This document shows, in pieces, positions 24,598 to 58,559 of a stretch of DNA of 64,000 nucleotides. The notes beneath the pieces are model-generated. The model ran no database searches and was not told where the DNA came from. It saw only the letters and a program-made list of their open reading frames with translations. The DNA is from Marsupella aquatica. Lineage: Eukaryota > Plantae > Marchantiophyta. The position numbers and the translations under genes were made by a program. Each line of letters begins with the position of its first letter. The stretch's first letter is position 1. The stretch is taken from contig OZ316892.1 in assembly GCA_973895155.1 (NCBI GenBank), positions 8,229,251 to 8,293,250 on the forward strand, given 5' to 3'.

Positions 24598-25208
24598 TTA
24601 CACTGCACCCCCACACTCGTGACAAGAAACCATTCCTACACATACCGAGAGATTGAACCTCGACCTCTCCATTATATCCCAAAGGCAGTTGGTTTAAAGA
24701 AATCATTTTGTATGAAATTTGTACATTGTAACGATGAGAATACACTACCGTGCTTTCCCTACTCACACTTACCAATCATACATTACGAGTTCCCACTGTA
24801 ACATGACTGCGCATGCTTGGTTGGGTCAATCATTGAAGTCACAAAGGAACTGAGTGAGCGAGAGTGTCACTCTCTGTCCACTAGCTAGAGTCGCTCGTTG
24901 TACTACTGTACAAAGCTTCAGAAGCCAGCCTCTATATCATGGTCTATGATAATCACGTCAAACCGGGGTAATTGTAACGTGCGAGCAAACAGTAAAAAAT
25001 TTACTCGCACGAGCAAAAAAATTTCCTGCATGACCTCTATTTTTCTACATGCAACTTCCTCGCTATCAACTACCTGGTTGGTAACATCCCTTTTGGGGAC
25101 TCCCTTTTTGCTAGCGAGCTCGCTAGCAATCTGGAATCCTTAAAATAACACAAAAAATGTAAAGGGCACAAAAAAAGCAACTTGTGAGAGTATGAATGGA
25201 ATAAATCA

Positions 25209-26050
25209 CGCGCAAGATTTGCGCCAAAATGTGAGGCATAACCATGTTCCTCGTTGAAAGCAGTGTCACATTTGACCATTTAGTTGATGCGTCGATTAAT
25301 ACCATAAAGTAGCGGAAAGGTCCGCTTGGAGGGTTAATTGGCCCGCAAACATCTGCATGGATGATTTCCAAGAATTGGGGTATTTTAGTTGGCAATTTTG
25401 ATGTCGTGGGCCTTGTTATTAATTTGCCGCGTGAGCATGCAGTGCATGGGGTGCTCGCTGGAAAGTGGCGTGTATTGATTGGAATGCCTCTTGAATTCTT
25501 AATGATTTTGGTTAGCATTGATTGACCGGGGTGGCCGAGGCGTGCATGCCAAAGTGCATGCAATTCGCTTGTGTTGGCATTGTTATGCAGGCATTCAATA
25601 TGAGTTACATAAAACCCGCAAGGATACGAGAAAAGTGTTTCTTTAATGATTTTCCCCGTAGGGGTATTTTCAACCAAGTGTATCACTTCCTGGTCTCTTG
25701 TGTCGCCCGTCTGGACATGTAGTCCATTTGCTCGTATATCTCTAAAACTGAGGAGATTACGGGTTGCGTTCGGGGCAAAAATGGCAGATTCTATGTGAAT
25801 CGCTGTACCCTGCGGTAGTCTAATGGAAGCTGGGCCGAAGCCTTCTTCTATTTGGCTAGGGCCATTTATAGTGGTCAGGGATCTACGTGAGGGTGTAATC
25901 TTGTGGAAAAGGTGCCTATCCCTGAGGATAGTATGCGTGGTCGCACTGTCGATAATACATGTGCTTGGACTATTTAAATCTGGTGTAGTGGAGCTACTTG
26001 CCACTAAGTGTGCCTCGGGTTGGGTAGGTCTGAAAAGTCTTGGAATGGGT
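25209..26050 (-). pseudogene. Copia protease, GAG-pre-integrase and truncated integrase
   Basis: CIIDSATTHTIL, LWHARLGHPG, CTACSRGKL and HADVCGPINPPSGPFRYFMVLIDASTKWS. Fused to the LTR remnant; RT and RNase H are absent. Confidence 0.9.
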
Positions 26051-27112
26051 CACTAGACTCCATAAATGCCCCGTGGGTTTCACGGGGTGGTGGCCTAGAG
26101 GTTTGTCCATCCTGGATGGACCGTTGGTATCTCTAAGGTGTTGCGGGATTCTACAATTTCTCGCTAGGTGGTTTGTCATGCCACATTCATGGCATTTTGG
26201 TCGTTCCCGTTGTTGTCGGGATTGTGACCAATCGTTTCTACGATTGTTGTTATATGTTCTACCACCGCCGTGTCCACCACGTCCTCCTCGTCCTCCACAT
26301 CCTCCATGTCCTTCTCGTCCACCACGTCCTCCACGTCCTCTAAAGGTCCGTTGGGAGTTATATTGTGGACGTTGGTTATAGAAACTCCTTCTATTGTGGG
26401 TGTTTCTTCGGTTGCCATTCTTAGTGCGCTTAATGCCTTGCCTTGATGTGGAGGGTTCAGCATTTTCTATGTTATGGGTTTCATTCTGTTGTCCTGAGGG
26501 CAGTGTGCCCGCAGGTCGTTTTCTAGAGTTTACTAAAAGAAGTTCTTGGTTTCTTTCGGTGACTAGGAGGTGGGCTATGAGCTCGGAGTATTGCCCAAAC
26601 TTCATGTTTCGATATTGTGTTGATAGCCACACATTCGATGAATGAAATGTCGACAAGGTCTTCTCTAGCAGATCCTTGTCTGTGATCGGCTCGCCACATA
26701 GTGCGAGGGTTGAGGTTATTCTAAAGAGTTCGCTATTGTAGGCTGAAATAGAGGTAAAGTCCTGGACTCGTAGGTTTAGCCAGTCTTGCCTGGCTTTAGG
26801 CAGTTCAACCAGTTTTTGGTGGTCGAATCGGGTTTGGAGCGTTGTCCAAAGTTCACGGGGGGTTGAGAGGTGCATGTATTGTCTTTGTAGGAATCTATGG
26901 ATATGGCGTCTAAGGAATACGAGAGCCTTAGATTCGTTGGCTTTAGTTAACGGGTCTGGTTGGGGTTCGCCAGCTAGTATAGGTTGAGCCATCCCTATAG
27001 CTGGGAGTAAGGTTAGCGAGGTTAGGTTTTCTTTTAGGTTCATGGACCATTCTAGGTAGTAGCCGTCATCTATTTCTAGGGCGGGGAAGGTGAGTTTCTC
27101 AAGGTTGGCCAT
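25994..27112 (-). pseudogene. Copia (Bianca) gag
   Basis: MANLEKLTFPALEIDDGYYLEW, LRVQDFTSISAYNSELFRI, LLEKTLSTF, an RGG tract and the zinc knuckle CHECGMTNHLARNC. Out of frame with the pol segment. Confidence 0.88.
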
Positions 27113-28711
27113 CTCTAAGGTCCTGGTGTGCAGCGGTGGTGTGGGTGTTGATATAATATATATGTAGTCAAAAGACAATGCACATTTGCCGCATGCAATG
27201 GTGGAGAAAGGGTTGAGGAGAGCAATCTAAGTCGTGGGCGAGTAAAGCAAGAATGATTGGGTTTTTGCGGAATTTAGGTTTTGCACTTAGTAAGTTGGTT
27301 TTCTTTGTAAATGTATAACTGCATTCTCTTCTTTGTATTTTAGGATTCCTTTGTATTTTGGTGCAGTTATCTGGTTGTGCACTTAGGGTTGCAGTTATGT
27401 GTTTGAGTGCTCTTCTTCCTTTGTTATTTCGAGTTCCATTGGAAATGAGTTGCGCTTAGGGATGGATTGGCGGTTAGGTAATTTATCTCGTGGGGCTATG
27501 GTGCCCCTCTCGATCTGGTTTGCCTTCACGATTTCCTTCAATGTCTTGGCTATGGCCGATTGCTTGGTTCTTCTCGCCCTTCCTCGATTTTCCCTCTCGT
27601 CCTCCTTCGATGGCGTTCTTGGGCACTTCTTTCTTCCTTCTTTGGTCCAAGCTAATCAGTGTGCGAGCTATCGTTCAACATCGGGCATTCATCGCCCCTA
27701 TCCACTTTGATTTTCTAAGAAGGTCTTATGGTCGATTTGTGTCTCAACTTTTGTTTCTTCGTTTGCCTTCGCTGCTGTTCTTCTCGAATCCAGGTTGTTT
27801 TATCTCGGGATCGTGAAATTGCAATCCTTCGATCAGAAAGGGGGCATTTTCTGCTTCAACATCTGGCTCCCTCGCTCCCTATCTCCTTCGATTTCTTTAT
27901 CCTTTCGAAAGAGTCTTCGCCTCCTTGTTTTGCTGCTGTGTTCTCAAAAGAAACAATTGCAGGCGTAGGGGCAGAGCGGTGTGCCACCAGCTTTCTGCTT
28001 ATTCCATTTCAATTCATCCTCCCCATAAACTGTCAATTCGTCCGCAGTCTTCTTCCGACGTTTGCTCAAACCAAGCTCTGCTTCTGACGATGAATTTCCG
28101 ATGGCCTCTCGCTGCTAGCGGCCCTACTGTCGAGTGCCCTTTTTAATTTTCCTTTCCATCAATCCTTATCGATGTGTTTCTTCGATCCTTATGAACTTTT
28201 CAGTTTCTGCTTGACTCTCTGGTTTTCTTCTCTATTCTCTATTCGGAATTCTCTTCAAGTCCTTATGAATTCTGTGTTTTTCTGCCCTCGACTCTCTGAT
28301 CTTGGATCCAATGTCTTTGTGCTCCTTAGATTTTAAAGTCGTCCTCTCGATCCCCCATAAAAAAATTTCAATCTTCCTTGGTCTTCTCCTTTCTATCTCG
28401 CTCCGCTGGCTGAGTCCTCGTGCTGATAACGTGTGAGAGTATGAATGAAATAAATCATGTATAGTCTGTGGCGGTTGGTACATATAGTGGTGCCGGTCCA
28501 GTGACTGGCTGATCCGATCGTCCAGTCACCAGGTAGAGTCTAGGTAGAGTCTAACAGAACTGAAATTTGGAACCATTTTTGTCTCGCTATCAAAATCTCC
28601 TGTTTCCTCGCAACATAGAATACCTTCCTGTTTCCTCGCAACATAGAATACCTCGTCAACCTGCTGAGCCCACAGCCAAAAGCTAGAAAGATCGAGGCAA
28701 GCGACGACTAA

Positions 28712-29450
28712 ATGTCCAAAAACCTGCAGATGCTAAGTTGCTACCAAACTGATCTTATTATTCCAATGAAATCCACCACACTACCGCTAGCTTGCATGGA
28801 AGTTTGGATAACGCGTCTGCGTCACCCATCTGCATTATATGCTGACAGTCCTCAAAATTTTGTGCGAAAACTAGAGGGCATTGGCTTTTGTCAAGAAAGT
28901 CGTGAATATGCAATCTTCTACGAAATGGAGCTTCAGAGGCGCCTGACTTTTCAAAGCATCTTGACGTCACGATGGGGACCTGTGTTCTTGCTCAAAAGAG
29001 GTGAAGCTAAAAAGTTAAATAAGAATAGTGATGAGAAAAGTTTCTACTTTGTAGTACAGGTTGGAGCGGCCAATTGGACGGATACAGGGAAGAGAGAAAT
29101 CTCTCTAGTTCATCTCGATAAATGAGATGGCGTCACTGCGTCTTAGCAGCCTGATGCCCCGCTAAAATCGTTACAAGGAGAATTGTCAATTCTGAATGAT
29201 TCCTGTCGCAGTGAAGCTTCGTGAATGGAGAGATGCTGACAAAACAACCAAGGTTGATATGAAGGCGTACCGAACGGGCGCAGGCGATCGGCTGGGTCAT
29301 CCACTTCTCATCCAGTATTGCACGGTAGACAGGTCCTTTCTCTGTTTCATGTCGGATACTGGAAAAGTCCATCATTGGGCAATGTACTGCTCATCCTTGA
29401 AGCTCTGTTGTCTTAATTCATTACTTCGCATCGAATTGAGAATTCTGTGA
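28712..29450 (+). pseudogene. Degenerate RLK/Pelle-type kinase N-lobe fragment(s)
   Basis: EVWITRLRHP...NFVRKLEGIGFCQESREYAIFYEM resembles kinase subdomains III-V. A second fragment reads LQGELS../IPVAVKL...HPLLIQY. Stops and frameshifts; no HRD or DFG motif seen. Confidence 0.4.
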
Positions 29451-29880
29451 ACAATTACGATTGCAGATGTCATTGACTGATCAAATCGACGATAGATTGT
29501 AAGTTTGTAGAACACAATTTGATGCAGAATATTAAAGCTTATCTTTTAACTGGTTCTGACTTGAATTCTGCGGTTCAATTTTGTTTTTGCAGGCTTGTAT
29601 GCCCGCTTGTACGTGGCCTTCGCTCGATCAGCGTCGATCTCAAACGCGGTCAGGTCTCATATGTAGACATGGTTTTCCATTCAAAGCCTTGTTTAAGATT
29701 GACGATTATGGAGTGTGGTGGAGAACAGTCAACATTGAAACTTTAGTCCAAGATCTGGATTTCTTCTTTGTATTTAATTTTCCTTTCATCATCCAGACAG
29801 CTTGCGGCTCAAAAGACTGTCCTCTGATCGCTCATTCATGTCCAACCTGGACCCCCGCCTGGACCTCACGAGCTGAACAC

Positions 29881-32158
29881 ATGGAATTTTCTGCTGGTGG
29901 CAACTCCGTTTCTTCTATCTCTTGGAGTTCACTTGTTTCAGCAATGGAGCCGAAACACAAGGCACCCTCCTTTCGGAAAGAATACACAAAGTTTCTTCAA
30001 AAACCGGTTATGGTTGTTGTTGTTTGGCCCGCCGTAGTAGGTTATTTCGTGAATCATATTTTCAGCTGGGCAACCCAAGGCACTGGAGTGATTACGTTTC
30101 TCCCGTATGTGGGATTTTGTACATTACTGTTTGTAATAACAGTGGTCTGGTGGTGTTTAAAGCACAAGGAACATCGTCAACTCCTGCAGGAGCATTCAGT
30201 TCGTCTGAAGAGTCGAGGTACTCAGATGACTCAGGCCTCAGAAAGCTTTATAATACCCGTTTCAGATGATGTCATTGAACCAAGGACCCCTAATCTACCA
30301 GTTGAGAGCGGTGGTAATGGATTGCAAGATGCATTGAACAATTCGAGGATGACAGGTGACAACACGAATGACCAATCAGCTAGAAGCAGTGTTAATCAGC
30401 ATCTTCAGGTAGAACCGTCAATATTATCTCCACCAAGTGATCGTCAAGATAGTGAATCAGACCAGAATCAAACCTCGGAAAGGTTCGGGAGACATTGCCC
30501 AGCTGAGAGCGGGGCTGAGAGGAGCAGTGGTGGAGGCCACGAGGTGATGAATGGAGATTCAAGAACTAGTGATTGCGGGAGCAATCAGCTATCAACTGCG
30601 AGCAGTCTTATTGGAGCTTCTGATCGAGCCCTTGCAAGTTTACCTCCACATGCAATCATGGAAAGCAATAGTGGAGAACAATTGCTGTCGCCTGGTTCGT
30701 CGATGCTCACTGTTGCCAACAATGAGGATATCGCAAGATTGGTGGAGGCACTGATGGAAGCACTGGAAAACAAGTCGGGTCCATGTCTGTGTCTGGTGTC
30801 CATTGTCAACAACAATCACATATCAAGATTGTTGGAAAGACTTCAGCCTAAGCCAAACTTGCCTGGCTCGAGAGTTTTGCACAAGAGGATTGAAATTGGC
30901 CGCCAAACTGGGAATTGGTGGAAAGACTTTTTATGTTCTGAAATAATAGACTATATGGGAATGGCAAAGACGTTTGATAAAGACTGTACCATGCAGTTGG
31001 GTTCCGTGGCCATCTTGAAACACACAGGTATTATATCTTTCAATTGACATTCTTTTTTCCATAGCCAGAAAGATTTCGTTTTTTCATAGCCAGACAGTTT
31101 TAGGTCAGCTCATCTCAAATTTTAAGGTTAAAATAAGCGTGAGTGGAGCCATGTGGTCTGACTAGCTTATGAGCTTGATCAAGTGGCCATGGGATTGGAA
31201 CTTGCCAGCAGGTCAGTCTCAGGTTCAACTTCTCTGTAAAGGCCTGGGAAGGTTGACAGTGGGTGTGTGGATTGAATCAGGCTAAGCCCTGCAAATCTCC
31301 CAGTGAACGAAATGATTGGGTTCCATAAATACATAATAAATATATTTGCTTGCTTGTTGTTATGAACAGATGCAGGCCTTAAATGTTGGATGCTCCACGA
31401 AGATTGGACACCTGTCATATTATATGTTAATAAATGTCCACAAAGTTTCTTGGAACTTCTCAATGGTACGGAAGTTATATATGATTTACAGTGAAAATTG
31501 CGAAATGCTCTCTACTTGTGTTCCTAACTTAATTTTATAGACATTTCTGTAGGGACTATTGAAAATTTGTCTTCCCATACTTGCAGACGAACGTCCAAAG
31601 TGGATAGTAATAGGCTTTAATCTTGAAACAACGACCTTGAGGGTTGCAACTACAGAAAGGAGCACAAACGTGACTATCTTGCGTCACAGTAAAGTAAGGA
31701 ACGTGTGGGACTCACTGAAATCGATTTTCTATACTTTCACAGCCATCATCCATATTAGTGTTGTTGTCTCATAGTTCTCATGAATATGCAGTCTAGTGGC
31801 AGTAGTTGGGACATGTTGATAAATCTTGTTTATGCCTTGGTTTACGCAGATTGACAATGGACTAGAAGAGCTGTTGTTCGAAGAACCTCGTACCTTTCCA
31901 ATGTTTTCAAACAAAGTCTACATTTCCGCCTCAAATACTGTACAAGTGGAAGGAGTGACTTTCAAGTTACATAGTGAAGCAAGAAAGGTTCAACGAGCAT
32001 TTTGGATTTCAGGTGGTTTTCTGGTTAAATCCAACAGAAACAAATTCAGATTTTTGAAACACATACCGATGCATTTACCCAAAAGAAACATGCTATATTT
32101 GATCAATTCAGAACTTAGACAGCAGTTTCATCGTTCAATTTTTAAATTTCATGTGTGA
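29881..32158 (+). CDS. Uncharacterised membrane protein (2 N-terminal TM helices, Ser-rich linker, C-terminal globular domain), 3 coding exons
   Basis: join(29881-31027,31587-31693,31850-32158). Both GT-AG introns have matching phases (1 and 0) and give an uninterrupted frame. Hydrophobic segments VMVVVVWPAVVGYFV and ITFLPYVGFCTLLFVITVVWWCL. Confidence 0.65.
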
Positions 32159-32709: not shown

Positions 32710-32925
32710 GATGCACAAAGCATTATTACATAATTGTACAAATTGAGTTACTGTTCTGTGCTGTGCCAGACCCCAACCAGGGATGTCAAGAGCCCAGGAG
32801 TCAGCACAAATCTATTCAGTCATAAGATACACTATCCTAATAATATATTAACACAATGGACAATTTTTGCAGATTTCGATGTTGACCCTAACCATGGATC
32901 AACAATAGCAGTGGAAGCCAGCTCG
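32710..32925 (+). repeat. Dispersed degenerate repeat, copy 1 (copy 2 at ~54460-54685)
   Basis: Shared blocks ctgtgccagac, gtcaagagc..gagtca.cacaaatct and cacaatggacaa.ttt(t)gcagattt.gatgttgac.ctaaccatggatc. Confidence 0.7.
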
Positions 32926-33289
32926 GAAGCCAGATTGGAAGACAACAACAACACCTTCATCACTCCATCACAAGCAATGACAAAATATGCAAGCATGGAA
33001 GAGGAAGGTAAGTTTTTTGACCACCTGATTGAACATGTCAAATGGACATCAGAAGCTTCTAGTACAAATAGCTTACAAAGTTTGCACATATTAAGTACAT
33101 GTCATAATTATCTCAATACCAAGGTTAATTGAATTTTTAATGTACCAGAACAATTGGTTCTCTTTAATTCAAGCATTTATTAATTAAAATAACTCTGAAC
33201 CAAAATGAAAATGTTTAACTCAATTGTAGAATTCCCCTAAGAAAACATTTTGCGCTATTAATATCTCAAGAGCACCTTTACAATTATTG

Positions 33290-33680
33290 TTTAGTGAAAA
33301 AAATGGCCTTTTTGCACTTGCAAGAGCAGGGCACAGGGTATGGGCTTTGGCTCCACTTGCACTGGAAAACAAGGAAGAACAAGAAGTCTTCCGGTCATCA
33401 AGTTTTTGCTCTCATGGACTGTGCACTAGAGAAAGATCACTGCAGAGTAGTAAAACCTTTTCCCAATCAAATGGACGATTGAGAATTTGCACTTTTACAG
33501 TTATCATTTAGCGAAAAAATGGCCTATTTGCACTTACAAAAAATGCAAAAACAGGGAATTCCACAGTTAAAACAGGGAACAGGACATCTTCCGGTCATCC
33601 AGGTTTTGCGCTTATGGAGTGCGCACTTAGAGAAAGACGACTGTAGAGCAGTAAATACTTTTCCCAATCAAATGGACGGG
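33290..33680 (+). repeat. Degenerate ~200-bp tandem duplication
   Basis: Both units start gaaaaaatggcct.tttgcactt and end cttttcccaatcaaatggacg. Confidence 0.75.
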
Positions 33681-33888: not shown

Positions 33889-34300
33889 GGTAGGTACTCT
33901 TTACAGTTTCTATCACTCAAAATTGTCGAGTGACTGCTCCGTCCGAGTCCTCGCTTCATCTACCATTGTTCCAAATATAGTGCAGATTACCTCTCAACTG
34001 CATGTCCCCCCATTATACTCCACACACAGGTCTTGACTCGGCATATTCCGGCGCCAGTCCCACTCGGCAGTCTGCTCCAGGATGTCTACATTCCGGTGTA
34101 CAACAGCATAGGAGTGCTTGTGGAAAGCCCCACTTAAGAATTCGAATTTATTTAGAATCACTACACTTGGATGAAGTGTCAAAATTTGAAGCTTTTCATC
34201 CTCATCAACTAAGGCTCATTGTCCCGTGAATTGAATATTTCAAACGTTTCTGTCATGAATTACAAACATATCATGGGTCATTGTGAGGTGATTATAATAA

Positions 34301-35626
34301 ATGCTTGGTGTGAAAATGTATGCAAAAGGTACAGCAAGTGCTTCGTCGACTCTAGCGTGGTGGAAAGGGGAATCGAATGAAAGTGAGCATTCAGAGATTG
34401 AAAGGGAAATTACAGGCCGGGAAGGGTCCTTGTCCGATCAACACAATCCCATTCTGGAAGCAAAAAGGGCAGCTACAGCACAGGGTTCCGTAGTACAGGA
34501 CGGTGCTACAGGTGACATTATTCACACTCTTGATTCGTCTCCATACCAGAGTGATGTGCCCGGTGAAATGGAGAGACTGTCTACTGCTATTGCTTCCCCT
34601 GTTGGGTGCACAGAGGAAACAGGACCGCCGTCTCGTCCACAAGACAGGACAGCATGTGCTTCGTGGAGACGGCTTGGATTCGAGAGAGAAGTAACTTTGC
34701 CGACACTCGTCCTAAGCCCGATTCAAGACACTCTTGAGAACCATGGCAATGCTCAGATGATGATTGCTGGGTTGGTCCTGGATCTGGAGTCAGATGCTGT
34801 CGATATCCAGAGGCAAGCTGCCGCAGAATTAAGGCGTCTCGCCAAGTACAACATGGAGAATCGTATCCTAATCGCCAACTCAGGTGCTATCAAACCATTA
34901 GTTGCATTACTGAAATCTGCGGATCTTAAAACTCAAGAGAATGCTGTGACTGCGCTGCTGAACTTATCAATCAATGATAATAACAAGTCCGAGATTGCTG
35001 CAGCTGGTGCTATAGACCCTCTTGTAAATGTACTCAATGTAGGGAGTGTACAGGCTATGGAAAACGCCGCTGCCACTCTCTTTAGTTTATCTGTGATGGA
35101 CGATAATAAAGTAACCATCGGGGCATCAGGTGCAATACCGTCTCTGGTACATGTGCTAATAAATGGGACTCCAAGGGGGAAAAAGGACGCAGCAACAGCA
35201 TTATTTAATTTGTCAATCTTTCACGAAAACAAGGCCCGTATTGTTCGCGCTGGGGCTATTAAACCTCTTGTTGAGCTGATGGCCGACCCTGCTGCTGGAA
35301 TGGTTGACAAGGCAGTGGCAGTGCTAGCGAATCTTGCAACTATACCAGAAGGGAGGGTTGCAGTTGGGGAGGAAGGAGGAATACCAGCTTTGGTGGACGT
35401 TGTTGAGGCTGGGTCACAAAGAAGCAAAGAGAATGCCGCAGCTGCCTTATTACAATTATGTATGAATAGCCACAAAGATCTAGCCCTCGTGTTCCAAGAG
35501 GGAGCAATTCCTCCCCTAGTCGCCCTGTCTCGGTCTGGCACGGCACGCGCGAAAGAGAAGGCTTCCGCCCTCCTCCGTCATTTCAGAGAGCAACGACATC
35601 AGGTTTGGTCCCCGGACTGGATCTGA
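34301..35626 (+). CDS. PUB4-like (PUB2/3/4 clade) armadillo-repeat protein lacking a U-box in this ORF
   Basis: QRQAAAELRRLAKYNMENRILIANSGAI, TQENAVTALLNLSINDNNK, ENAAATLFSLSV, GTPRGKKDAATALFNLSIFHENKARIV, DPAAGMVDKAVAVLANLATIPEGR and GTARAKEKA match the PUB4-clade ARM domain. Single exon. Confidence 0.85.
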   Translation: MLGVKMYAKGTASASSTLAWWKGESNESEHSEIEREITGREGSLSDQHNPILEAKRAATAQGSVVQDGATGDIIHTLDSSPYQSDVPGEMERLSTAIASPVGCTEETGPPSRPQDRTACASWRRLGFEREVTLPTLVLSPIQDTLENHGNAQMMIAGLVLDLESDAVDIQRQAAAELRRLAKYNMENRILIANSGAIKPLVALLKSADLKTQENAVTALLNLSINDNNKSEIAAAGAIDPLVNVLNVGSVQAMENAAATLFSLSVMDDNKVTIGASGAIPSLVHVLINGTPRGKKDAATALFNLSIFHENKARIVRAGAIKPLVELMADPAAGMVDKAVAVLANLATIPEGRVAVGEEGGIPALVDVVEAGSQRSKENAAAALLQLCMNSHKDLALVFQEGAIPPLVALSRSGTARAKEKASALLRHFREQRHQVWSPDWI

Positions 35627-36530
35627 CAAGCAATTGATGGGGCAATACTACGTATAATGTATGATTCGTTCTTTTTGGTCCTGCCTAGGCTACAGGATCT
35701 ATTATCTGTTACTCTTGATGGAGTATATAGCCCACAGCCATGACATACATGGACGGACAATGCCTGAGTTTTAGGCGTTTAATCTCTTTGACAAAGGTGT
35801 GGTCATAATAGTGCCCGGGAATTCAGTTGTCTCGGTTGACAGGACAGTCTTGGATCAGGGGGCAATCTTGAAGCCACATTATTACGCGATGTCTCCCATC
35901 CAGGAAGTTGAGTCTAATCCAATGTACATAGTCCATGCTTTATGAAACACCGTACTGGTGTGAACGACTACTTCTATTACCATCCAACTTGGGAAGAGCA
36001 TGACTCGAATCGCGTAGAGACATCGCCGACGACTCTTTCAAACAAAACCTGAACTAGAATGTAAAGATGTGTGAGCTTTAGAACAAGCAAACTGTTTAAA
36101 GGCCCATAACCTGTGATCATTCTCAATAGAGCGAACATAACAATTTTACACACATCAATTGACTGAGACTACACATCGAGAATAGATGGTGTACAGATTG
36201 TCTTCTTTATTTTCCCCGTATTCTCCGTGAAGAGAATTGACAGAAAGCTTAGAATCAACTCAGATCAATACCGCAGAGGGAGGGAGAGATGAACCTTAAT
36301 ACCTCACATCCCCGCGGACAATCGAGACAATTCAAATACACAGAGAACGTGAACTCCTTACAACGGAAAACATAGAACTCTTTAAACCACGCGTGGTGAG
36401 TTCAACGACTTACACCCGCGGCAGTTTACATGAGTAAAAAAAGACGGAAACTCTTAAGAAATGACACGAGGAGTGCAGACAATCACCCGCGGCATTTTAC
36501 ATGAGAAATAAGTAACCAAAGAAACTCTAA

Positions 36531-38290
36531 CGACAGATAGCAGTCGATCAGAAGAGAAGACAGAGCATCCTGTCACAAGAGGACTCTCGGCAGCTCCAAA
36601 TTCTCGATCATGAAGGTGAGGACCGGATCCTTCCCGTCCTTGACGACAACCCCAATCTGCAAACAACTGTAGGAGACCCTTTGCGGGCTGCATTAAGCCA
36701 ATCGGAGTCCAACAAACTTGACATTTTGAACCCAGACGTACAAATTCCAAACCTTGCTAAGTCTTTGTTCCGCGATGACAATCCCAAGTTGCAGGCAAAT
36801 GCAGCGAAGGCTTTGGGGAATTTGGCACTTCGCATAGAGGATTTGGCACTCGAAGGCTTGGTACGGTCTTTGTCGCACGACCAGAATCCCAGTTTGCAAG
36901 CAATTGCAGCAGGGGCTTTGCGGAATTTAGCACTTGGCACGGAGGACATCAAACTCAAAATATCGGAGGAAGATGGAGCACTCAAAGGCTTGGTACGGGC
37001 TATGTCGCACTACCAGAATCCCAGTTTGCAAGCACATGCAGCAGGGGCTTTGCGGGATTTAGCACTTGGCACGGAGGATATCAAACTCAAAATATTGAAG
37101 GACGACGGGGCACTCGCGGGCTTGGTAAGGTCTTTGTCCCATGACCAGAATCCCACTTTGCAAGAATATGCAGCAGGGGCTTTGGGGAATTTAGCACTTG
37201 GCACGGAGGACATCAAAGTCAAAATAGTGAAGGAAGATGGAGCACTCAAAGGCTTGGTAGGCTTAGTACGGTCTTTGTCCCGCCACCAAAATCGCAGTTT
37301 GAAAGCAAATGCAGCGGGGGCTTTGCGGAACTTAGCACTTGCCACGGAGGACATCAAACTCAGAATATCGACAGAAGATGGAGCACTCAAAGGCTTGGTA
37401 CGGTCTTTGTCCCACGATCAGAATCCCAGTTTGCAAGCAGATGCAGCAGGGGCTTTGGGAAATTTAGCTCTTGGCACGGAGGACATCAAACTCAAAATAT
37501 TGAATGAAGATGGAGCACTCAAAGGCTTGGTACGATCTTTGTCCCGCGACCAGAATCCCAGTTTGCAAGCAAATGCTGCAAGTGCTTTGTGGGGGTTAGC
37601 GTGTGTAGAAAAGAAAGTCGAAGTCCAGATTTCGAATGCGGATGGCGCATTAGAGGGCTTGTACGATCTTTGTTCCAAGATGAAAATCCCGAGTTGCAGG
37701 AAAATGCAGCAGGGGCTTTGCAGAGTTTGGCTTTGGGAACGCAGGAAGTCAAACTCAAAATATTGAAGGAAGACGGCGCACTGGCAGGCTTGGTAAGGTC
37801 TTTGTCCCATGACAATAAGCCGAAGTTGCAGGCAAATGCAGCGAGGGCTTTGAACAATTTAGCACGTGGAGAAAGGAAAGTCAAGCTCAATATTTCGAGT
37901 GCGGAGGGGGCACTTGCAGGCCTTGTTAGTTCCCTGTTCCAAGGTGACAATCCTGAGTTGCGAGAAAATGCGGCAGGAGCTTTGCAGGGTTTAGCATCTG
38001 CAACGAAAGAAGTGAGACTCAGAATATTGAATGAAGATGGAGCAGTTGTAGGCCTTGTGAAGTGTCTGGACGAGCCTAACAATCCGGACTTGCAGGCAAA
38101 CGCAGTAGGGGCTTTAGGCAATCTAGCCGCCGGAGGAGAGTCAATGAGACTTAGAATTTTGAAGCAGAACGAGGGTATCGTGGATCTCGTGCAGGGCTTG
38201 TGCGAGCACGAAGATTCCGAGTTGCGGGCAATGGCAAGAAACACTTTATCCATTTCAAGAGGCAAGAAACACTTTATGCTGTTTAAGTAG
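36531..38290 (+). CDS. Armadillo-repeat protein of ~12 highly similar 44-aa repeats, with one frameshift (~37661); start exon not identified
   Basis: 132-bp period (cagaatccc at 36882, 37014, 37146). Consensus DQNPSLQAxAAGALxNLALGTEDIKLKILxEDGALKGLVRSLSH. One missing G (ggcttgtacg vs consensus ggcttggtacg) links ORFs 36681-37766 and 37589-38290. The frame is open from 36531, with an acceptor-like ctaacgacAG at 36536. Confidence 0.75.
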
Positions 38291-38767
38291 GTCCACGAAT
38301 TACACATCAGCTTTCAATCAGAGCTATCGCTATCACAGATTCCAAACATAATTGCTTCAGACGATCGATGGGGCAGTTCGGGCCTCGTTAAGCATCCTTT
38401 AACTACATAAGCTTGACAGTCCCGATCCTACTGGAATGCACTTTCTGCACGAAGATGCTTATCTCGTGAGATACGAAAAGTGTTCAATCATTGGGTCGGA
38501 TTTTTAGAAATAGCGAGTGCACAACTTGCGAGCTTCAGCCATGCATTTCATGTTCGCGCGCCAAAAACTGTCGGTCTGACATTATTAATTGAAACCAACC
38601 GGCTTGAGTGACGCTTCCACTCATAGTCGTTGAAAACGCGGTTATGTCAGTATTAAGGTCAGCGTTGTTGATTACAATCCCAAATGATACTGCGAAACAG
38701 AGGTGTTGAACTATTCAGAGATAAAAGTTCTTTACTAATATCATTTATTCATTATTGTATGTGGAAA

Positions 38768-39373
38768 TTCAGAGCTTTTTTTGCTTCAGAGGTGAAGCGA
38801 CAGAGTTTAAGTCGAGTCATGACGCAAAGACCTTCGAACTTTAGAGCACAAGCCAGAGCGGAAGCCAGATCAGACATTAATAGGGCGGATACCTGGCAGG
38901 GGGAAATCTCCCTCGTCGGCTGAGCTTCAGAGGTGAAGCAACAGAGTTTAAGTCGAGTCATGATGCACAGAACCTTCGAACTTTGTAGAACAATCCAGAG
39001 CGGAAGCCAGATCGGACATTAATAGGGCGGATACCTGGCAGGGGGAAATCTCCCTCGTCGGCTCAGCTTCAGAGCTTTTTTCTTCAGAGGTGAAGCAACA
39101 GAGTTTAAGTCGAGTCATGATGCACAGAACCTTCGAACTTTGTAGAACAATCAGAGCGGAAGCCAGATCGGACATTAATAGGGCGGATACCGGGCAGGGG
39201 GAAATCTCCCTCGTCAGCTCAGCTTCAGAGCTTTTTTCTTCAGAGGTGAAGCAACAGAGTTTAAGTCGAGTCATGATGCACAGAACCTTCGAACTTTGTA
39301 GAACAATCCAGAGCGGAAGCCAGAGTGGACATTAATAGGACGGATACCGGGCAGGGAGAAATCTCTCTCGTCG
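38768..39373. repeat. Tandem array of four ~156-bp units
   Basis: tcagaggtgaagc(a/g)acagagtttaagtcgagtcatg... starts at 38786, 38927, 39084 and 39240. Units are nearly identical; no maintained ORF. Confidence 0.93.
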
Positions 39374-40198
39374 ATTAGATATCTGAGATGGCGACAATGA
39401 GTGGTAGCAGCCTAAAATCTGCCAACGGCAATTGTCAATCGTCAATGAATGGTGTGGCAGTGGAGCCCTAATTAACGGAAATTAAGAGGCTGATTGAGAA
39501 CACAGCCCAGTTTCATGGAGACCGTCCGGAAAAGACGGTCTGGTTGGCTCCATCTATGAATCTGTATTTTAGGAGTTCGATCGAATCAATCGCATGGCGG
39601 ACTGCATGTAGGATGTGTAACTCCCGTCCTGGTCACGCGTTCTGTCATTTCGTTCATGTTCATCAGTGAGAGATTGGTGGACACTCCCTGTCTGTTTGAA
39701 TCGAATTTCGTACGAGTACCCCTCTCAATTAAATGTAATGTCAGCGGTTTCATTGCGTCTTTGGAAGCTTGTAATGCAACTTCTACCTCTCAGCGTCTCA
39801 GGGTACACGTACCTGTCCTGGTCTTTCCTAGATAGACAACTATGTGGTGGAGAACTGCCGACATTGGAGTTGGCCTTTCGTCCTCGATCTGAATTTCTTC
39901 TTCACATTCTAACTGTTTCATTATCACCCTTATAGATTGTGGCTGAAGAGACAGTCCTCTGATTAGTCGAGGTTTCTGCTGGTGGAAACTCTATTTTTTC
40001 TATCTGGTGGAGTGTACTTAAGTTTCCTATATAATAACTACACTAGTTCAATATCCATGCATTGCAGAAAGCGTTATCTGTTTGTCATGAATGTCGCCCT
40101 GCTGTAAGCTGCTCTTTGTCATGCGGATTAGAAACATCAAATTGACAACTTTTGCGGGGAAGATTTATTTCTCCCAGCATTCCGCACAAGCATGAAAA

Positions 40199-42396: not shown

Positions 42397-45300
42397 TCAA
42401 GGAAAAGAGGTCTTCATCAACGCCTGTTTCGCTGAGTTCTTGGTGAAGTCTTCGGGATCATGCTTTACTTCATGAAGTAGCGCCACGACTTCCTTCATGG
42501 TGGGCCGCTCCGCCGGAAAGGAGTGTACACACAAGAGCGCCACTCCGAGAGCTTGCGTCATCTCCTGAATGAAAGCGTCGGGCATCCCTCTCATCCGCGA
42601 GTCGATGACCTCCCACGTCGCCTGATGAGTGTTGCCAGTTGCCGATTTACTTTGATTTATGGTTTCCTGCACCCATTTCACAATGTGCCAATTCTCTCCG
42701 AGCCCGGGCTCCACCGCCTTCCTGCCCGTCAATATCTCCAGCAACACCACTCCGTAACTGTACACGTCGCTCTTGTCTGTGATTTTCATCGTGTACCCAT
42801 ATTCTGCATCGAGTCACAACGATACTGATGAGCCAAGTATATCGTAATTAAAACATGTACAGAGGGTCTGACGTTACAGTCCCAACAGCAGACCTTGTCC
42901 GCCTTGACCCACAAGGCGACACGGTCGTGGATTTCAATGCCCAGGAGCGGGCCCTCCCACAGTCTAAGTGGAACCCGTGCAAAGCACAAACACATCCACA
43001 TTCAGAGTGCTAAAACTAGCTGGATAAGTTACCTAATAGTCTAGAAGAAGTCGCCTACCTTCTTCCGCCAGTAGTACAGTTAGCACACAAGCAACTATGC
43101 TAGGCATTGAGCGCTCTACAAGTTTAATGATGATCTGACTCTGACCTACCGTTCCGACGGTGATCAATTTACAATGTTCTCCTCAAGCGTCACCGACCAA
43201 TGGAGATAACCGGGACCATTGCATACATACAAATATCAAATCTAAAGTACTACAGTAGGTCCAATCCGAAGGCGCGTCCATTCATCATCAGAGTCTTACT
43301 CGTTCAGGTAAGGTTCAATCGGAAAGGCGAGTTAAGCGGAATCTAGCTCGTCCTGCGCCCATCTTGGGAGCTTCGTGACTCCATGTGGTGGTGAGGCATT
43401 TGATGCATGTTTGAAAACTCTCCTAAGCATTGTGGGGTCTCGATAATCCTATCGGAAAATCCATCACCGATAAAATTGGGTCCAGAGAAACGAAGTTGTT
43501 CATCCGGTCCAATTGGCACAGTGTGAAGTACGTTCATTGTGGCATTTTTCACGCGTATTGCAATTGATCAGGAATGAAGGAAAAGAAAGTAAACTGACCT
43601 GGAGCGATGTAGCCGTAAGAGCCAGCCACCTTGGACACGACCTTGGATGCATTAGACGCATCGATAAGCTTGGCCAGTCCAAAATCCGCTACATACGGCT
43701 CAAAGCGATTTCCCAACAGAATGTTGTTAGATTTGACGTCGCGATGCAAAATTGCAGGGAGACAGTCGTGATGCAGATAGGCTAATCCCTGTGCAGCTCC
43801 GACGGCAATGTTGTACCTCGTCTCCCAGTCCAGCATCCTCTTCTTCTCGTGAAGTACCTCCCCAAGACTCCCATTCGGCATATAGTCGTACATGAGAAGG
43901 TTAATGTCATTGTTGGAGCAGTACCCCAGTAACCGGACGATATTGCGGTGCCGAATGGCACCGAGAATGTCGATCTCAGCTGCGAAAGAATTCTGATGAG
44001 CGTCTCCGTTCCTCACCGGCCACAGTTTCTTCACTGCAATCACCTCCCCACCGTCCATCTCGGCCTTGTACACGATGCCAGAACATCCACTACCCACCAC
44101 ATTCCTCTCCACAAGACTGCTAAGCACCTCTCCCAGGGTGAAATTGAGTTTCTGGAATGGAGTGAATCTCCATGGCCAGGGCCCATCGTCATCCATACAC
44201 TGCACATCCACCCAATAACGCTTGTAGAACAAGAAAGACCCCACACAAAGAATCACCACAGCTGAGCCGAAGAGAAGGCTCACCACCAGAGGTGTTTCGG
44301 CTATGCCACCTTTGGCCCTTCCATCTTGACCAAAATTATTTCCCCCCAAGTTCGACGAGCAGTTGCTAACGGCATTAGTGCAGAGCCCGGGGTTTCCGAG
44401 GAATGAGCTAGGTGGCATGGAATGGAAGAAATAAGTGTCCGGCAAGTATCCCGTGAAGGCATTGTATGAGACATTGAGCGACGAGAGGCTGTCCATTTGA
44501 CCTAAAATGACGAGGCTTCCGGAGAGAAGGTTGTGGGAGAGGTCCAGCAACTGGAGGTTGATGAGCTGGGCGAGCTCTGTTGGGAGAGATCCAGAGAGAA
44601 GGTTGTAACTCAGGTCCAGTCCGATCACGAGACTCACAATGCTGCCCAGCTCGGATGGGATCTCCCCGCTCAGTTTGTTTTGGCTTACGTTCAGCAACTC
44701 CAGCTTTTTGCAGCTTCCAAAAGACGTCGGAACTGCTCCGGAGAGAAGATTAGAACTCAAGTCCAGCTGGTTCAAAGACTTGAGATTGCCCAGCTCGGTT
44801 GGGATGAGACCATTGAACTGATTCCCCGAGAGGTCTAGAATTTGAAGGTTGGACAAGGTAGCCAGCTCGGCTGGAAGGTTTCCTGAAAGCTGGTTTCCAT
44901 GCGCATCGAGGAGCTCCAGGGCCGAGCAGTTCCCAAGCTCCTTGGGCAGGGGCCCTGCGAGCCCGTTGTTGAACAAGTCGAGGAAGATGAGGTTCTGCAG
45001 CTGCCCAATCTCGGTGGGTATGGTCCCGGTGAACAAGTTGTTGGCAAGGCGAAGACGGACCAGTTTGGCGCTCTGGCCAATCTCGCGCGGAATCTGCCAT
45101 GAATATTATTCAACACACAATCTATGAGATTCACCCTACACATACGAACTCCAAAGCCATAGGATAAGAGGCCATAACATGACAAACCACTTTGAGGCCC
45201 CGAGCACGCCGCCTTTCTTGGAAAATCATAATCCAAAACTTGGCGCCCAGATAACTACACATACCTATACTCGACAAGACTACTCGTAGGAACTGTTCAA

Positions 45301-47097
45301 CACTTCAACCTAAACCATCGAACCAAAAAACCGGAAGCAGGAAGCTTGTTGCTGTCCAAGAAACACGGACCGCATAAAGACGACAATTGACTCGGAGAGT
45401 CTCTATGATGGAAAACTATCTGATGAACCCACGTGCTTCACAGGGGGGTGAGAAAAGGTGGACTTCCCTTCAGTGACCAGAAAACGAGTACGTTCACTAA
45501 GACATTATATAATGTTTCTTACATTCTTTTTTACAGGTGTTGCATTTCTCTCCTTGACTGGGAAAATTTAGTCTCCATGTGCTCCATTATCTGGGATTAT
45601 ACGTGAATCAAATGAGCATTACTATATCTACTGTACATCACCTCGGAACTGAATGAACAATTGTAAGCGTCATTTGTAGGGTCACGTCTACCTTGACGAA
45701 ATAGCCTGCTAGATAGAAACTTGATTGGAAAAACTGGAACCGAGTTAAATCAATCGACATACCTCTCCAGAGAGATTGTTCGAGAGAAGTCGCAGCCGCA
45801 GAAGGTTGGGCAGCAAGAACAGCTCCCGAGGAAGGGCCCCAGAGAGTGAGTTGCTAGTAGCATCAAAGTCGATTAGAGCCTTGCAGTTGCCCATACTGAC
45901 AGGAATCTCGCCGGAAAAATTGTTCGCCCACAGAAACAACGTCTGAAGCCCGGTGAATTTTCCGAATTCGATTGGAATTGGGCCGTAGAAGTCATTGTTG
46001 TCCACCTGCAGACTCCAAAGGCTGGACAGGTTGCCCAGCTCGGGAGGAATGACTCCAGAGAGGTTGTTGAAGCTGAAAAGCATTTGCTGGAGAGAGCTGA
46101 GTCTTCCAAGTTGAGGCGGAATGCTGCCCGTCAACGTATTGTAGGATAGTTCTAGCACTTGGAGAGAGTTGCAGGTGGCGAGCTCGGGTGGAATAGTACC
46201 TGTGAATTCATTATGCCAGAGATAAAGATCTTGGAGTTGAGTAAGATTCCCGAGCTCGGGAGGTATGGGACCCGTCAACTGGTTCTTGTGAAGATAGATA
46301 GCCTCCAGGGTAGTGATGTTCGCAAGCTCCGGGGGTATGGGCCCAGTGAGATTACATTGATAGAGAGCCAAGTTCTGCAGCTTTTCCAGCCCTCCATATG
46401 AGGCTGGGATACTACCTGAGATGGCAGTCACAGCGAACCCCAGCACAGTGAGCTGTTTCAAGTACCCCAGTTCAGTAGGCAACAATCCTCCCAGGAACTC
46501 ATTCCCTCCCCCACGGATCTGCACTAAGTTCGTCAGGTTCCCTAACGACGAGGGCAGGCTCCCACTGATATTATTCTGGTAAAAATACAAGATTTGTAAC
46601 TGAGCCAACAACCCCAGCTCCGGGGGTACAGGCCCATCAAAACTATTGTCGTTGAGCATCAGCTCCCTGAGCTGTGTCAATTGGCCCAAGTCCGGGGGGA
46701 TGATTCCCGTCAGTCCATTGCCACTTAAATCTAACACTTGCAACTGGGTGCAGTTAGCTATCTCCACAGGGATCATCCCCGTCATATTCAATCCGGACAG
46801 AGTCAAGTACTGCAGTGCATCGAGAGATCCAATTTGTGATGGAATGCTTGCGTAAAGAGACAACGCATGCAGGGTAACATTGACTACACGACCTGTCGTA
46901 TTCGAGCACCAGACTCCCATCCAACCTTGGCAGGGGTCGGGATCTTGCTCATTCCAGCTGCTGAATAAGCTCTTGGCGTCCGGGCTTACAGACTGCAAGA
47001 AGGAAAGAAGCACACGTCCGTCGGAGTTTATGGCAGTGACGCCAATGTTGCTCGTGAGACCCAACAGCAGAAGTAGTAGCAGGATTGACGACGACAT
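42397..47097 (-). CDS. LRR receptor-like kinase subfamily XI, RGI/RCH1-like (RGF peptide receptor family), ~1078 aa
   Basis: join(47097-45763,45093-43599,42803-42397), phase-consistent GT-AG introns (alternative ATG at 47154). Signal peptide, LRRNT (SWN..DPC.W.GV.C), many plant LRRs with RxGG (QIRGGGN) and RxR (LVRLRL), TM helix, WPWRFTPFQKL, kinase VKKLW/[38 protein letters not shown]. Confidence 0.95.
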
Positions 47098-49469
47098 TTC
47101 TCTGAGCGACCGTTGTTCCAAGTTCGGCTTCATCGGACTACTCACCGACACCATCCATGGTCGTACACTACCTGAGTTTGAATATGAGCCGCATTGCTGC
47201 TCTTTCACTGTTCAGGCAATCCACAGCGTAGGGGCCTACCCCAGCCTCCTCTAAGGTTCCGAACGGGTAAACTTATCAACCAGGGGACTATTAGATATTG
47301 GATCTATCTGCTTCTTTCGGCAGATCTCACAAGGAGCTTTTCAACATGGCAGCTGCAGTGATCTTTATGAGGGCCTCCAGGGTTTCTCGATCTCTTTACT
47401 CTCCTCGTGGTCCAGACTTTTCTACACCTGGCAGAAGCAGCAGCAGTAGCTCCCAATCTTCTGTTCAGAACGTACACGTAAAACCCCACCATCGGAATCA
47501 ACCTTCGTCCCGCCCTCTATCTCGGAGCGGTACGAACCAAGAATGCAGGAACTGTCCACCATTGTTGTTGCTTGAGTCACTCCCGCTCTTGTCATCCGCG
47601 ACCAAAATATACTGTTGCTGTTGGCTGTGCACTTTGTGCGCTGCTCGGACAGCTTAAGCAGGGTGACAGTTAGTGAGTGGTGAGTGCTTGCCGAAGCTCA
47701 AGAGTCCGGCACGACTAACGAGACAAAAGCGTTGGACCTATTCACGCAGAGGAGCCAGTAGGGCCCTCGTCACAACGAAGTGGAACTGGAAACGAAATCA
47801 AAGCGACGGAAGGCGGGTGACAAAATAAGGATGTCGGAGGGAGGAAGGGAAGGATGATAGCCGACAGGTGGGCTGATGACGCCGATTGGGGAAAGAAAGT
47901 AACGAGGTGGTAACTGATAAACTGAAATTCCAATGTCAATGTCCAACAGGAAACCGAAGGACTGTAGCTCCTGCAGTGGCAGCAGCTACTCTACTCATCT
48001 CCTGAAGGGCTGCACTGATCTGCGCCTAGCTGAGCTACACCTAGAGGGCTGTAGCAGGCGAGGAGGATGACGAGAGAACCTACGGTTGACCTACAGCTAC
48101 AGGTCCGTAGCTGGCGAGAGGAGGATCGAGAGAAGAACTGACTGTAGTTCCACTTCAAGTGCCTGCACTTAGCTACAGCAGCTGTGAAGGTGAGCATATT
48201 ATATTCAGTCGGATTGAGTTCATCAGCCTCACGGAGTCACGGCGGATCAGTGGATGAACTCGAGTCCAGACTTTGGAAGCCGGACGAGAGCGAACACCAC
48301 AGCGTCATCAATTCATCATAGCCTCTACGGACAGGGACAGACAAGCTAGAGCGGGGCCCGCATTAGATCCAGCCCAGACGAGATGGGTCAGGAGCACTCC
48401 CTTAGATGGACCCCCCAGTCACAATCTAGCAATCATCAGTTCTACACAGAAAACAGACAAATCGCTCTCCAACAGTAACCCGATAAAGTGCTTCGATAAA
48501 ATAATCAACTCCGTTGTTGGGACCTATCACCAATGGCATGGCATGCAATGCAATGAAGTGAAATCAAATGCCGGCAAGATACTAAGCCAGGCACGAGATG
48601 AGCACCTTCACAACAAGGAGCCTCGTCTGACAATGCCGATGACACTTTATTATAGACCGTAGCACGCAGCCAAGCAGCGGGATCTCTTCTTCTTCTGTTG
48701 GTCACCATGGTAGGAGGCTAGGAGCGGCACCATCATTCTCATCACCCCCTGCCTCTTCTTCTTCCACAGTGGGGCCCCCCTCGGCCACGAATCAAGGAAC
48801 ACAAGGGAGATGCAAGGCCTGCTTGCTCTGCTGGGTGCTCACTGCCGTGCCGTGCCGGTCCGTGCTGCTGCTGCATGCATGCTCGCTTCTGCAGAGCAGA
48901 TGACCGAGTGAACGGTGCAATATATTATGTTGTACTATATACCGCCGTGGGTTGGTATGATGGGCGAGAAGCGCATGCTCAAAAAGGCAGAGCACCAGGC
49001 AGGCAGGCATCCAATCCACCAAGCAAGGAACAGAAGGCCGGATAAAAGCCCCACCTGGGTAGGAAGGGAGCGAGGGAAGGATGCATGGGACGGATCCCAA
49101 GCTGTACTGCCGTTGTACTCGATCCTTATGTCCTTTGCTCGACACTTCAGCAAATTGACAGCCACATTGTAGCACAGTGAGACACAGTCGTCGTCCTCGC
49201 CATCTCCTTTTCCTTGCCTTGAGAATTCAATTCCTCATCAGCCTTGCAACAAAAGCAGAATCAGGAGAGAATCAGCAGCATACCATACAGAGAGAGGGCA
49301 GGCAGGCCACGAGGCAGGCCGAAACGAAACCCCATGGAAATTTCTGGAGTCTTTCATGCTCATCTTCAACGTCCTCGACATTTCTTGGAGCCAAGAAAGA
49401 GATGAGAAAAACCGGCCAATGTCTGCGCTCAAATAACCGTACATCACCACCTTCTTCTCATTCTACTTC

Positions 49470-57283: not shown

Positions 57284-58559
57284 GCGGATCCCTACGACTC
57301 ACGGATGAAAATGTGGAACGGACGGCCGTAAAGGATAATGCGGCAATCGACGAACAGCCGCAAACGAGAACACGGGTTTGGTTTTTCCGGACACTTCCGA
57401 AATGTTCACTCTTCTGTACACAGCAGAAAGCAATTTCGACTCCACAGTGAATTTCGACAGTTTTGAGAAAGAGAGCAGAGGGAGAGGCGATGGGAGAAAC
57501 AACGACAGCGAGGGGTGCCATAGTTCGATGTGGAGCTCGTCTATCTAAGCTGTATTCCACTTCGGCACTCCACCCCCTTCGTCGAAGTCCCCTTCTTCCT
57601 CTTCTTCTTCCTCGTCAGGTATGATGCCCAGGCTCGTAGCCCCTCTTTCTGGAATTGCTGCGTCCTTTTCTGCTTGGTATTCATGTACACGTTCAACGCT
57701 TGTATGGATTGATTTGAAGTCGCACAATTTAGTCAGACGGGACAAAGTTGCTGATACTAGTCACTCTCGTCGACTATGGATTGTTTGCTTCATTGAAGGA
57801 GTTGAATGGAATTGGTAGAGATGAAGGTCAGGGTTTAGGCAATTGGTAGCTCTCTTTCTCGAATTCCTGATTGTTTTTCTTCTTGTTGGTCATGTCCATG
57901 CAACACTCGTCTGGCTCCATCTGAAGTTTTTGTATTCCGAAAAGCTGCTTACTTCTAGTCAATCTCGCCCAGGCAGTTGAGTTTAGTTGAATTGACAGTG
58001 CTGGCGATCTGGTTTTAGGGTTTAGGCACTTTCGTTGCCGAGTGTGTGAGGAAGGCAGAGGAAGGCAAAGATTGAGCTCCTCGAACTTCGTAACCTTGTA
58101 CAATTATACCAGGTTTGAAGAGCCGGTGTTTTCTTGACCTAGTGAAGTAAATTGAATATGAGTGGGAGAGGTAATATTGGGAAAAGAAATGGCCTGGAAT
58201 ACCCAACCCTCTGAGGATTGCTATCAATGTCTTGTGGTCGTCGTCTGGATTGCAATTTTGCTTCTAGTGAAACAACATTGTGGACCTTCCAGTTCTTCTG
58301 TTATGTTCTGAATTGCAGTGTTACAGTTTTCACTGGTTAGTGGCACTGCCTGGAGGAGTTCTCTGATGTTTTCTTGTCGTACATGCCAGAATCGTGCATG
58401 AACTGAAATGGGCAAGGAATTGCCAGGAGTACCTGTAAGTACAAAGAGAATGAGAGAGGGTGTACTAAGGCCTTACTGGCGCAGATGTGGTATTGAATCT
58501 CTACTTATTGAGGAGGGTGAGCAGTGACCAGCAGCCGTAGTAGCAGCTTGAGTGATGAA

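Follow-up and report, generated by a model that had tools for sequence, protein, structure and literature searches.

Tandem-repeat sensors whose units are homogenized along the array and vary at the binding face have been described for fungal NLRs with high internal repeat conservation, among them the WD40 proteins HET-E and HET-D of Podospora and proteins of the TPR and ANK types, and these arrays also bear signs of unit exchange (PMC4986451). Plant NLR-like proteins of the armadillo (ARM) type are known but rare: CC-NB-ARM proteins, such as rice RLS1, are reported to be conserved in plants (PMC12512272), and NLRscape is described as holding fewer than 500 non-LRR solenoid entries versus approximately 55,900 LRR entries (PMC9825502). 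An ARM protein without a nucleotide-binding domain also acts in immunity in the case of rice Ptr, which is described as needed for Pi-ta resistance, mainly cytoplasmic, and built with four ARM repeats (PMC5966436). In designed ARM proteins and importin-alpha, near-identical modules present side-chain pockets (PMC11228518, PMC4756613), and helix 3 supplies the pocket (PMC10684580, PMC11228518).

Here, we describe an ARM array of the liverwort Marsupella aquatica, situated in a 64,000-bp stretch of contig OZ316892.1 (positions 8,229,251 to 8,293,250) that we refer to as the window. The array resembles the fungal proteins in its homogenized tandem repeats, its binding-face variation, and possible signs of unit exchange, but it consists of plant ARM repeats and comes without NACHT or NB-ARC. 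Its 44-aa unit is closest to that of P0033, which, together with P0038 and P0040, belongs to a set of liverwort NB-ARC-ARM(-TPR) proteins likened to RLS1 by architecture, whereas the window gene lacks NB-ARC and has predicted membrane helices and a domain that we call domain X. The likeness to Ptr, an ARM protein that also does without a nucleotide-binding domain, is by description. Compared with designed ARM proteins and importin-alpha, the window units are natural and 44 aa long, eight of the 11 units have Gly where designed ARM proteins have Trp33, and the array is a candidate binder known from sequence. Our literature search, with most subscription papers outside its reach, found no account of homogenized liverwort ARM arrays or of such a membrane architecture; a bryophyte pangenome paper mentions supplementary text about immune receptors that may bear on novelty (PMC12513842). 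The feature is real and the allele damaged; the gene is likely a variable-repeat sensor of undescribed predicted architecture.

An ARM array with two polymorphic lesions

The array comprises 12 ARM units anchored on helix 3 (36780-38290, stop codon included) with a period of 132 bp (successive spacings of 105, 132, 132, 141, 132, 132, 131, 132, 132, 132, and 132 bp); unit 1 is short by 9 codons, unit 4 is longer by 3, and an additional degenerate 44-aa unit ahead of them makes a thirteenth, cap repeat (Table 1). Pfam Arm (PF00514) is matched in each of the two reading frames of the array (E = 8.7e-33 and 8.1e-20; 111.7 and 70.6 bits, cutoff of 20.6), which identifies an armadillo-repeat protein, and the array also matches Vac8, importin-alpha, and designed ARM proteins. 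The unit count and Pfam matches confirm the approximately 12 tandem 44-aa repeats of the preliminary description, which had also called the middle units almost identical, a statement that holds loosely for the homogenized block of units 2 to 6 (84 to 92% DNA identity) but not for the remaining pairs among units 1 to 11 (52 to 83%). Its lists of the residues following LQ and within ALxxLA match units 1 to 11, although the "LQ" itself is replaced by LK in unit 5 and by LR in unit 10. Its picture of a single gene body in one open reading frame had to be given up: the first ORF ends at a stop codon at 37766, and units 8 to 12 lie out of frame with those before them.

Table 1. Features of the ARM locus and its surroundings, in window coordinates (exon assignments are predictions)
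Feature	Position	Strand	Basis
Exon 1: hydrophobic helices at aa ~43-61 and ~67-95, followed by a long disordered region and the beginning of domain X	29881-31027	+	ORF, GT donor, hydropathy, homologues
Exon 2: domain X	31370-31465	+	tblastn match to P0110, P0116, P0118, P0119; GT-AG, phase 1-1
Exon 3: domain X (IPT/TIG-like part)	31587-31693	+	Match to P0119; splice sites
Exon 4: end of domain X	31850-32012	+	Match to P0110, P0117, P0118, P0119
Exon 5: two further hydrophobic helices	32293-32469	+	Weak colinear match to P0118, P0119 (E of 0.18, 0.08); hydropathy
Exon 6: linker, consensus GTAAGT donor	32873-33007	+	Predicted from splice signals and phase only
Exon 7: linker	34030-34095	+	Predicted from splice signals and phase only
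Last exon, 5' part	34329-34490	+	Two possible acceptors of phase 1, a weak one at 34328 and a better one at 34355
Insertion, part 1: intronless PUB-type ARM fragment with stop codon at 35626, then untranslated-like sequence	34491-35954	+	
Insertion, part 2: high-copy element with 518-bp TG...CA segment at 36060-36577	35955-36577	+	
Linker and degenerate cap repeat (36648-36779)	36578-36779	+	
ARM units 1-6, including homogenized block 2-6	36780-37553	+	
ARM unit 7, 131 bp, 1-base deletion behind 37649	37554-37684	+	Contig comparison
ARM units 8-12 and stop codon, shifted frame	37685-38290	+	ORFs, Pfam
Gypsy-like and copia-like retrotransposon ORFs, in pieces	8599-13313, 25123-27226	-	ORF inspection
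Leucine-rich-repeat receptor kinase gene	42397-47211	-	ORF inspection
IRE1-like gene	58521-61192		Kinase and Ribonuc_2-5A

The reading frame shifts at the deletion in unit 7, which we examined in contigs from four of the five runs that contain the stretch, none of the five being recorded as RNA. X1 and X2 represent organism A, and X3 and X4, which come from one study, represent organism B. Contigs of X1 cover 36549-38902 with no differences and no gaps, and one of 1,432 bp crosses the frameshift without a difference to the window; X2 agrees as well, by just 19 letters past the site. One X3 contig and one X4 contig, in contrast, have an additional base behind 37649, the former spanning the site fully and the latter by 19 letters. 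An assembly error at the frameshift was rejected on the strength of the exact X1 contigs across it. The wider suspicion that collapsed or miscorrected reads generated the array or the frameshift has behind it the repetitive nature of the array and the possibility that X1, the best run, derives from the source sample, but it is largely refuted and exceedingly improbable, given the exact X1 coverage and the long exact pieces found in X2, X3, and X4 as well.

The second lesion lies upstream. One X3 contig and one X4 contig join 34490 to 36578, skipping 2,087 bp with 16 other letters between, and this joint keeps the reading frame. The haplotype of the window therefore carries an insertion, 34491-36577, inside the ARM exon. 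What had been taken for a neighboring PUB4-like gene is thus the first part of this insertion. It is in frame with the host exon and matches Pfam ARM_PUB (86.8 bits), and none of the six frames of the window contains the U-box motif of a PUB ARM ligase; we presume its identity as PUB4. Its depth is approximately twice that of single-copy sequence in X1 and X2, with paralogous differences, which shows that the sequence occurs a second time at another place. The second part has a depth of 164 to 186 in X1, versus 11.5, many contigs break sharply at its end (36577/36578), and its TG...CA segment comes after a purine-rich run; it is likely the 3' end of a retrotransposon with its LTR. Contigs of X1 and X3 both start at an AG at 35559, which could reflect either an intron of the source gene or a difference of one base and at most suggests intron loss in the insertion.

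From this arrangement, an LTR element appears to have captured a fragment derived from an mRNA. The insertion shares with described LTR-mediated retrocopies (PMC5131818) an mRNA-derived-looking sense fragment joined to a retrotransposon end, here in frame with the host exon, and differs from them in that LTR-like sequence is present on the 3' side only, no target-site duplication is recognizable at the insertion, and intron loss is suggested. We also considered and rejected the idea that the array arose by tandem duplication of the PUB gene: the similarity between the two is generic (approximately 30%, E = 3e-5), and the PUB-type ARM segment yields nothing above 12 bits on the profile of the 44-aa unit.

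Both lesions are real and polymorphic, and the window allele is unable to encode an intact protein. Intact alleles likely exist, because organism B has contigs free of each lesion, the insertion-free joint and the intact unit 7 sitting on separate, unphased contigs. Two further expectations of the preliminary description concerned copy number. Paralogues are present in the form of partial contigs: paralogous repeats occur within organism A, where X1 contigs with loose ends continue in the same unit type. In X1 and other runs, contigs of 1,002 and 1,665 bp, among others, match single units at <90% (36777-37720) and then run into similar ARM sequence, pointing to several paralogues in one organism. 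Repeat-number polymorphism, by comparison, did not appear: the contigs of the four runs, which cannot exclude it, contain no joint that skips whole units.

Predicted upstream exons and domain X

Eight predicted exons starting at 29881 form one open frame in which all seven introns are GT-AG and which, with both breaks entered as X, encodes 1,260 aa. The array likely constitutes the tail of this predicted four-membrane-helix protein, which would consist of a helix pair, domain X, a second helix pair, a linker, and the 12 ARM units, with the connection to the array being the conjectural step. Exons 1 to 5 are colinear with proteins of Calypogeia fissa (E to 8e-45 in a 9-sequence comparison), and exons 6 and 7 have no significant homologue match. 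The predicted 1-kb intron contains a tandem duplication of 74% identity (33272-33477 and 33489-33678).

Neither domain X nor the upstream ORFs have a Pfam match, which includes the absence of NB-ARC, the defining domain of NLR and CC-NB-ARM proteins; comparison of the N-terminal part with the NB-ARC regions of P0033, P0038, and P0040 reveals no similarity, and these proteins match nothing elsewhere in the window. The comparison with NLR-like modular receptors made earlier does not extend to the N terminus, which is predicted to comprise membrane helices and domain X instead of an NLR module. A profile search with domain X returned 7 proteins, 5 of them from C. fissa, and none of the 7 has ARM repeats; from the 9 matches of another homologue search, P0109, P0112, and P0115 were dropped as repetitive artifacts. 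In P0117, P0118, and P0119, all from C. fissa, the module of membrane helices and domain X has differing C-terminal partners, namely, GAGA_bind (E = 8.8e-56), a weak match to alpha/beta-hydrolase, and a stretch with no assignment. Such combinations may be genuine modular fusions or products of annotation.

Structural models of two domain-X homologues (mean pLDDT of 51 and 70.5) have an IPT/TIG-like C-terminal half, with Z scores of 9.4 (rmsd of 2.2 Å) and 8.5 (rmsd of 2.4 Å) over 84 residues each, values that are just above background; the N-terminal half has no assigned fold. A Foldseek search with these models gave no match at an E of ≤0.001, a PDB profile search with domain X gave three matches at an E of ~1, which we disregarded, and querying the Atlas with P0110 returned no match at ≥0.9. 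That domain X might be a degenerate NB-ARC was rejected, as there is no sequence match and the model is a beta-sandwich.

Whether the array belongs to this gene depends on the last junctions. The ARM exon could instead be a gene of its own, starting at an ATG at 34301 or 34319 and encoding a soluble protein of approximately 640 aa, probably the detached sensor half of the NB-ARC-ARM family, with the upstream membrane gene being unrelated. These in-frame ATGs, the first of which is an alternative start of the last exon, come after a stop codon at 34298-34300, ARM-only relatives exist (P0039, P0049, and P0002), and the domain-X homologues are, as noted, free of ARM repeats. We nevertheless consider a separate gene clearly unlikely, given that the consensus donor of exon 6 has no other coding target ahead of the ARM exon, that the phases agree at three junctions in a row, and that the distance from exon 6 to the ATG is only ~1.3 kb. 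A single unit of domain X and ARM repeats also fits the position of an upstream-region copy directly after the ARM stop codon: 29072-29217 and 29714-29828 recur at 39334-39466 and 39843-39963 (72 to 74% identity), ~10.2 kb on, and no coding paralogue follows this copy. The copy overlaps a 156-bp tandem triplication at 38925-39372.

Another possibility is that the insertion is functional, having placed the PUB-type ARM domain of a host protein in frame on the membrane module, where it would serve as an integrated decoy replacing the array. The predicted exons do read into the insertion as an open chimera of 1,062 aa, up to the stop codon at 35626, a bacterial effector is reported to target PUB4 of Arabidopsis and tomato (10.1101/2020.10.25.354514), and relatives of domain X carry the other C-terminal partners listed above. 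An in-frame joint is, however, expected by chance in one-third of cases, and, between the insertion and its other copy, 13 of 19 variant codons are nonsynonymous and 6 synonymous (among the best 40 of 176 differences), near the neutral ratio of 3.06:1. PUB4 orthology is, moreover, our own assumption, and the Calypogeia fusions may be annotation joins, so a functional swap of this kind appears very unlikely to us.

Groove variation and the NB-ARC relatives

Alignment to designed ARM proteins (4rzp) equates unit position 7 with Glu30 and position 10 with Trp33, both of which bind peptide (numbering of PMC4756613). It is this alignment that places the variable sites on the ARM peptide groove, as the preliminary description had proposed. 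We take positions 3, 6, 13, 14, 17, and 18 to be groove positions as well, as in designed libraries, and the resulting set of eight (3, 6, 7, 10, 13, 14, 17, and 18) was picked after inspection of the alignment. Position 13 equals position 36 of the designed ARM proteins of PMC4756613, where it is buried.

On a tree of 11 units, the best grid value of omega is 3 (1.0 to 5) for the 8 groove codons, 0.4 (0.3 to 0.7) for the 18 other exposed codons, and 0.1 for the 18 core codons; in terms of protein change, groove codons thus evolve much more rapidly than the other exposed ones. An omega above 1 at the groove is borderline (P = 0.054), and conversion between units can inflate it. The dN/dS comparison that had been proposed as a check accordingly favors a fast-changing groove but not a firm excess over 1, and the four positions originally singled out (6, 7, 13, and 14) have, by themselves, an omega of ~1 (0.4 to 3). 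In pairwise comparisons, pN/pS is 0.350/0.302 at five helix-3 sites versus 0.236/0.461 elsewhere.

Within the homogenized block (units 2 to 6), 9 of 25 minimal amino acid changes fall on the eight groove positions (P = 0.027 versus all 44 columns), and position 7 has five residues in five units (P = 0.03 by simulation). Variation is not confined to helix 3, as the preliminary description would have it: positions 27 to 29 and 42 to 43 vary too, and, versus other exposed columns, the groove enrichment has a P value of 0.21 (0.054 when units 1 and 8 are added). A neighbor-incompatibility test for mosaicism of units gave P values of 0.027 and 0.042, a signal that clustering of rates can mimic.

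A search for longer homologues returned 76 matches, the top eight being liverwort proteins. The best is P0033 of C. fissa, an open protein of 1,490 aa (E = 4.7e-141, 45% identity) that carries NB-ARC (E = 2.3e-17) and also tops the profile of the window's unit (15 units, mean of 44 bits), such that the repeat unit is homologous to the sensor of an NB-ARC protein. P0038 and P0040 are NB-ARC-ARM-TPR proteins, P0035 combines ARM and TPR without NB-ARC, and P0034, P0039, and P0049 have ARM/HEAT matches without NB-ARC; a search for homologues of near-equal length returned only 32 distant ARM proteins. The P0033 array is a higher-order repeat of three units (44, 46, and 45 aa). Where high internal conservation is defined as >85% amino acid identity over ≥100 aa (PMC4986451), the window array reaches 82 of 100 ungapped residues, narrowly short of this limit and hence outside the group, and P0033 reaches 91 of 100. 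Changes in P0033 are concentrated at the groove: 25 of 46 minimal changes among units of the same class lie on 24 of 135 columns, compared with 14 changes on 49 other exposed columns (P = 6e-5, based on 13 of 14 units, with the last, longer unit omitted). As an open candidate, P0033 is fitter for experiments than the window allele.

These data bear directly on a plainer account, in which the array grew by slippage and conversion with an unconstrained groove, while the gene, a duplicate specific to its lineage and not needed, is becoming a pseudogene. Apart from the two lesions and the omega of ~1 at the four positions, this account draws on the differences between haplotypes: among 40 of the 43 differences in the repeats, 27 variant codons comprise 18 nonsynonymous and 9 synonymous ones (neutral, ~3.2:1), none at positions 6, 7, 13, and 14, one of the 18 nonsynonymous codons on the eight groove positions, and several striking core residues. 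None of these 40 differences creates a stop codon, however, and against mere expansion and decay stand the conservation of other exposed sites relative to the groove (omega of 0.4 versus ~3) and the same groove bias in an open NB-ARC-ARM protein of another liverwort, P0033. We consider it somewhat unlikely.

Proposed mechanism and biological meaning

The reading that we prefer, while according it slightly less than an even chance, is that the ARM exon, broken by the insertion and the deletion, ends a four-membrane-helix liverwort gene acting as a variable protein-recognition sensor. Its eight upstream exons would be spliced to the array, with domain X and the array sharing the cytosolic side. 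Unequal crossing-over and conversion would copy and mix units while the core is under purifying selection, and each unit would supply a different small pocket of one long groove. Gly in place of the usual Trp33 argues against a basic ligand of the import-signal type. On binding a foreign or altered protein, the sensor could then cluster through the IPT/TIG-like fold, a fold that is the dimerization domain in Rel proteins, and the signal would pass through a partner protein, since no NB-ARC, kinase, or known death domain is present. An immune role is suggested by analogy, with rice Ptr, an ARM protein required for the resistance given by an NLR, as the working model. In the window haplotype, the insertion probably cut off the array, and the frameshift would represent decay.

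A broader version would posit, for leafy liverworts, an undescribed class of membrane-anchored immune sensors in which a four-helix IPT/TIG module carries swappable C-terminal sensors. One of these would be a natural modular reader of peptides, an ARM array with a groove diversified by selection and units shuffled, also with NB-ARC-ARM receptors; the locus would then show such a swap under way, with the array giving place to a PUB-type ARM decoy of retrocopied origin. We regard this version as distinctly improbable.

Under the neutral account, the locus would illustrate clearly how a repeat array expands and then decays. If the sensor reading is true, a plant ARM array that diversifies at the very groove randomized by engineers would amount to a natural peptide-recognition code, testable unit by unit. 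The polymorphic in-frame insertion would offer a rare view of the replacement of a sensor domain, and the range of plant immune receptor designs would grow by a membrane-anchored form that lacks NB-ARC.
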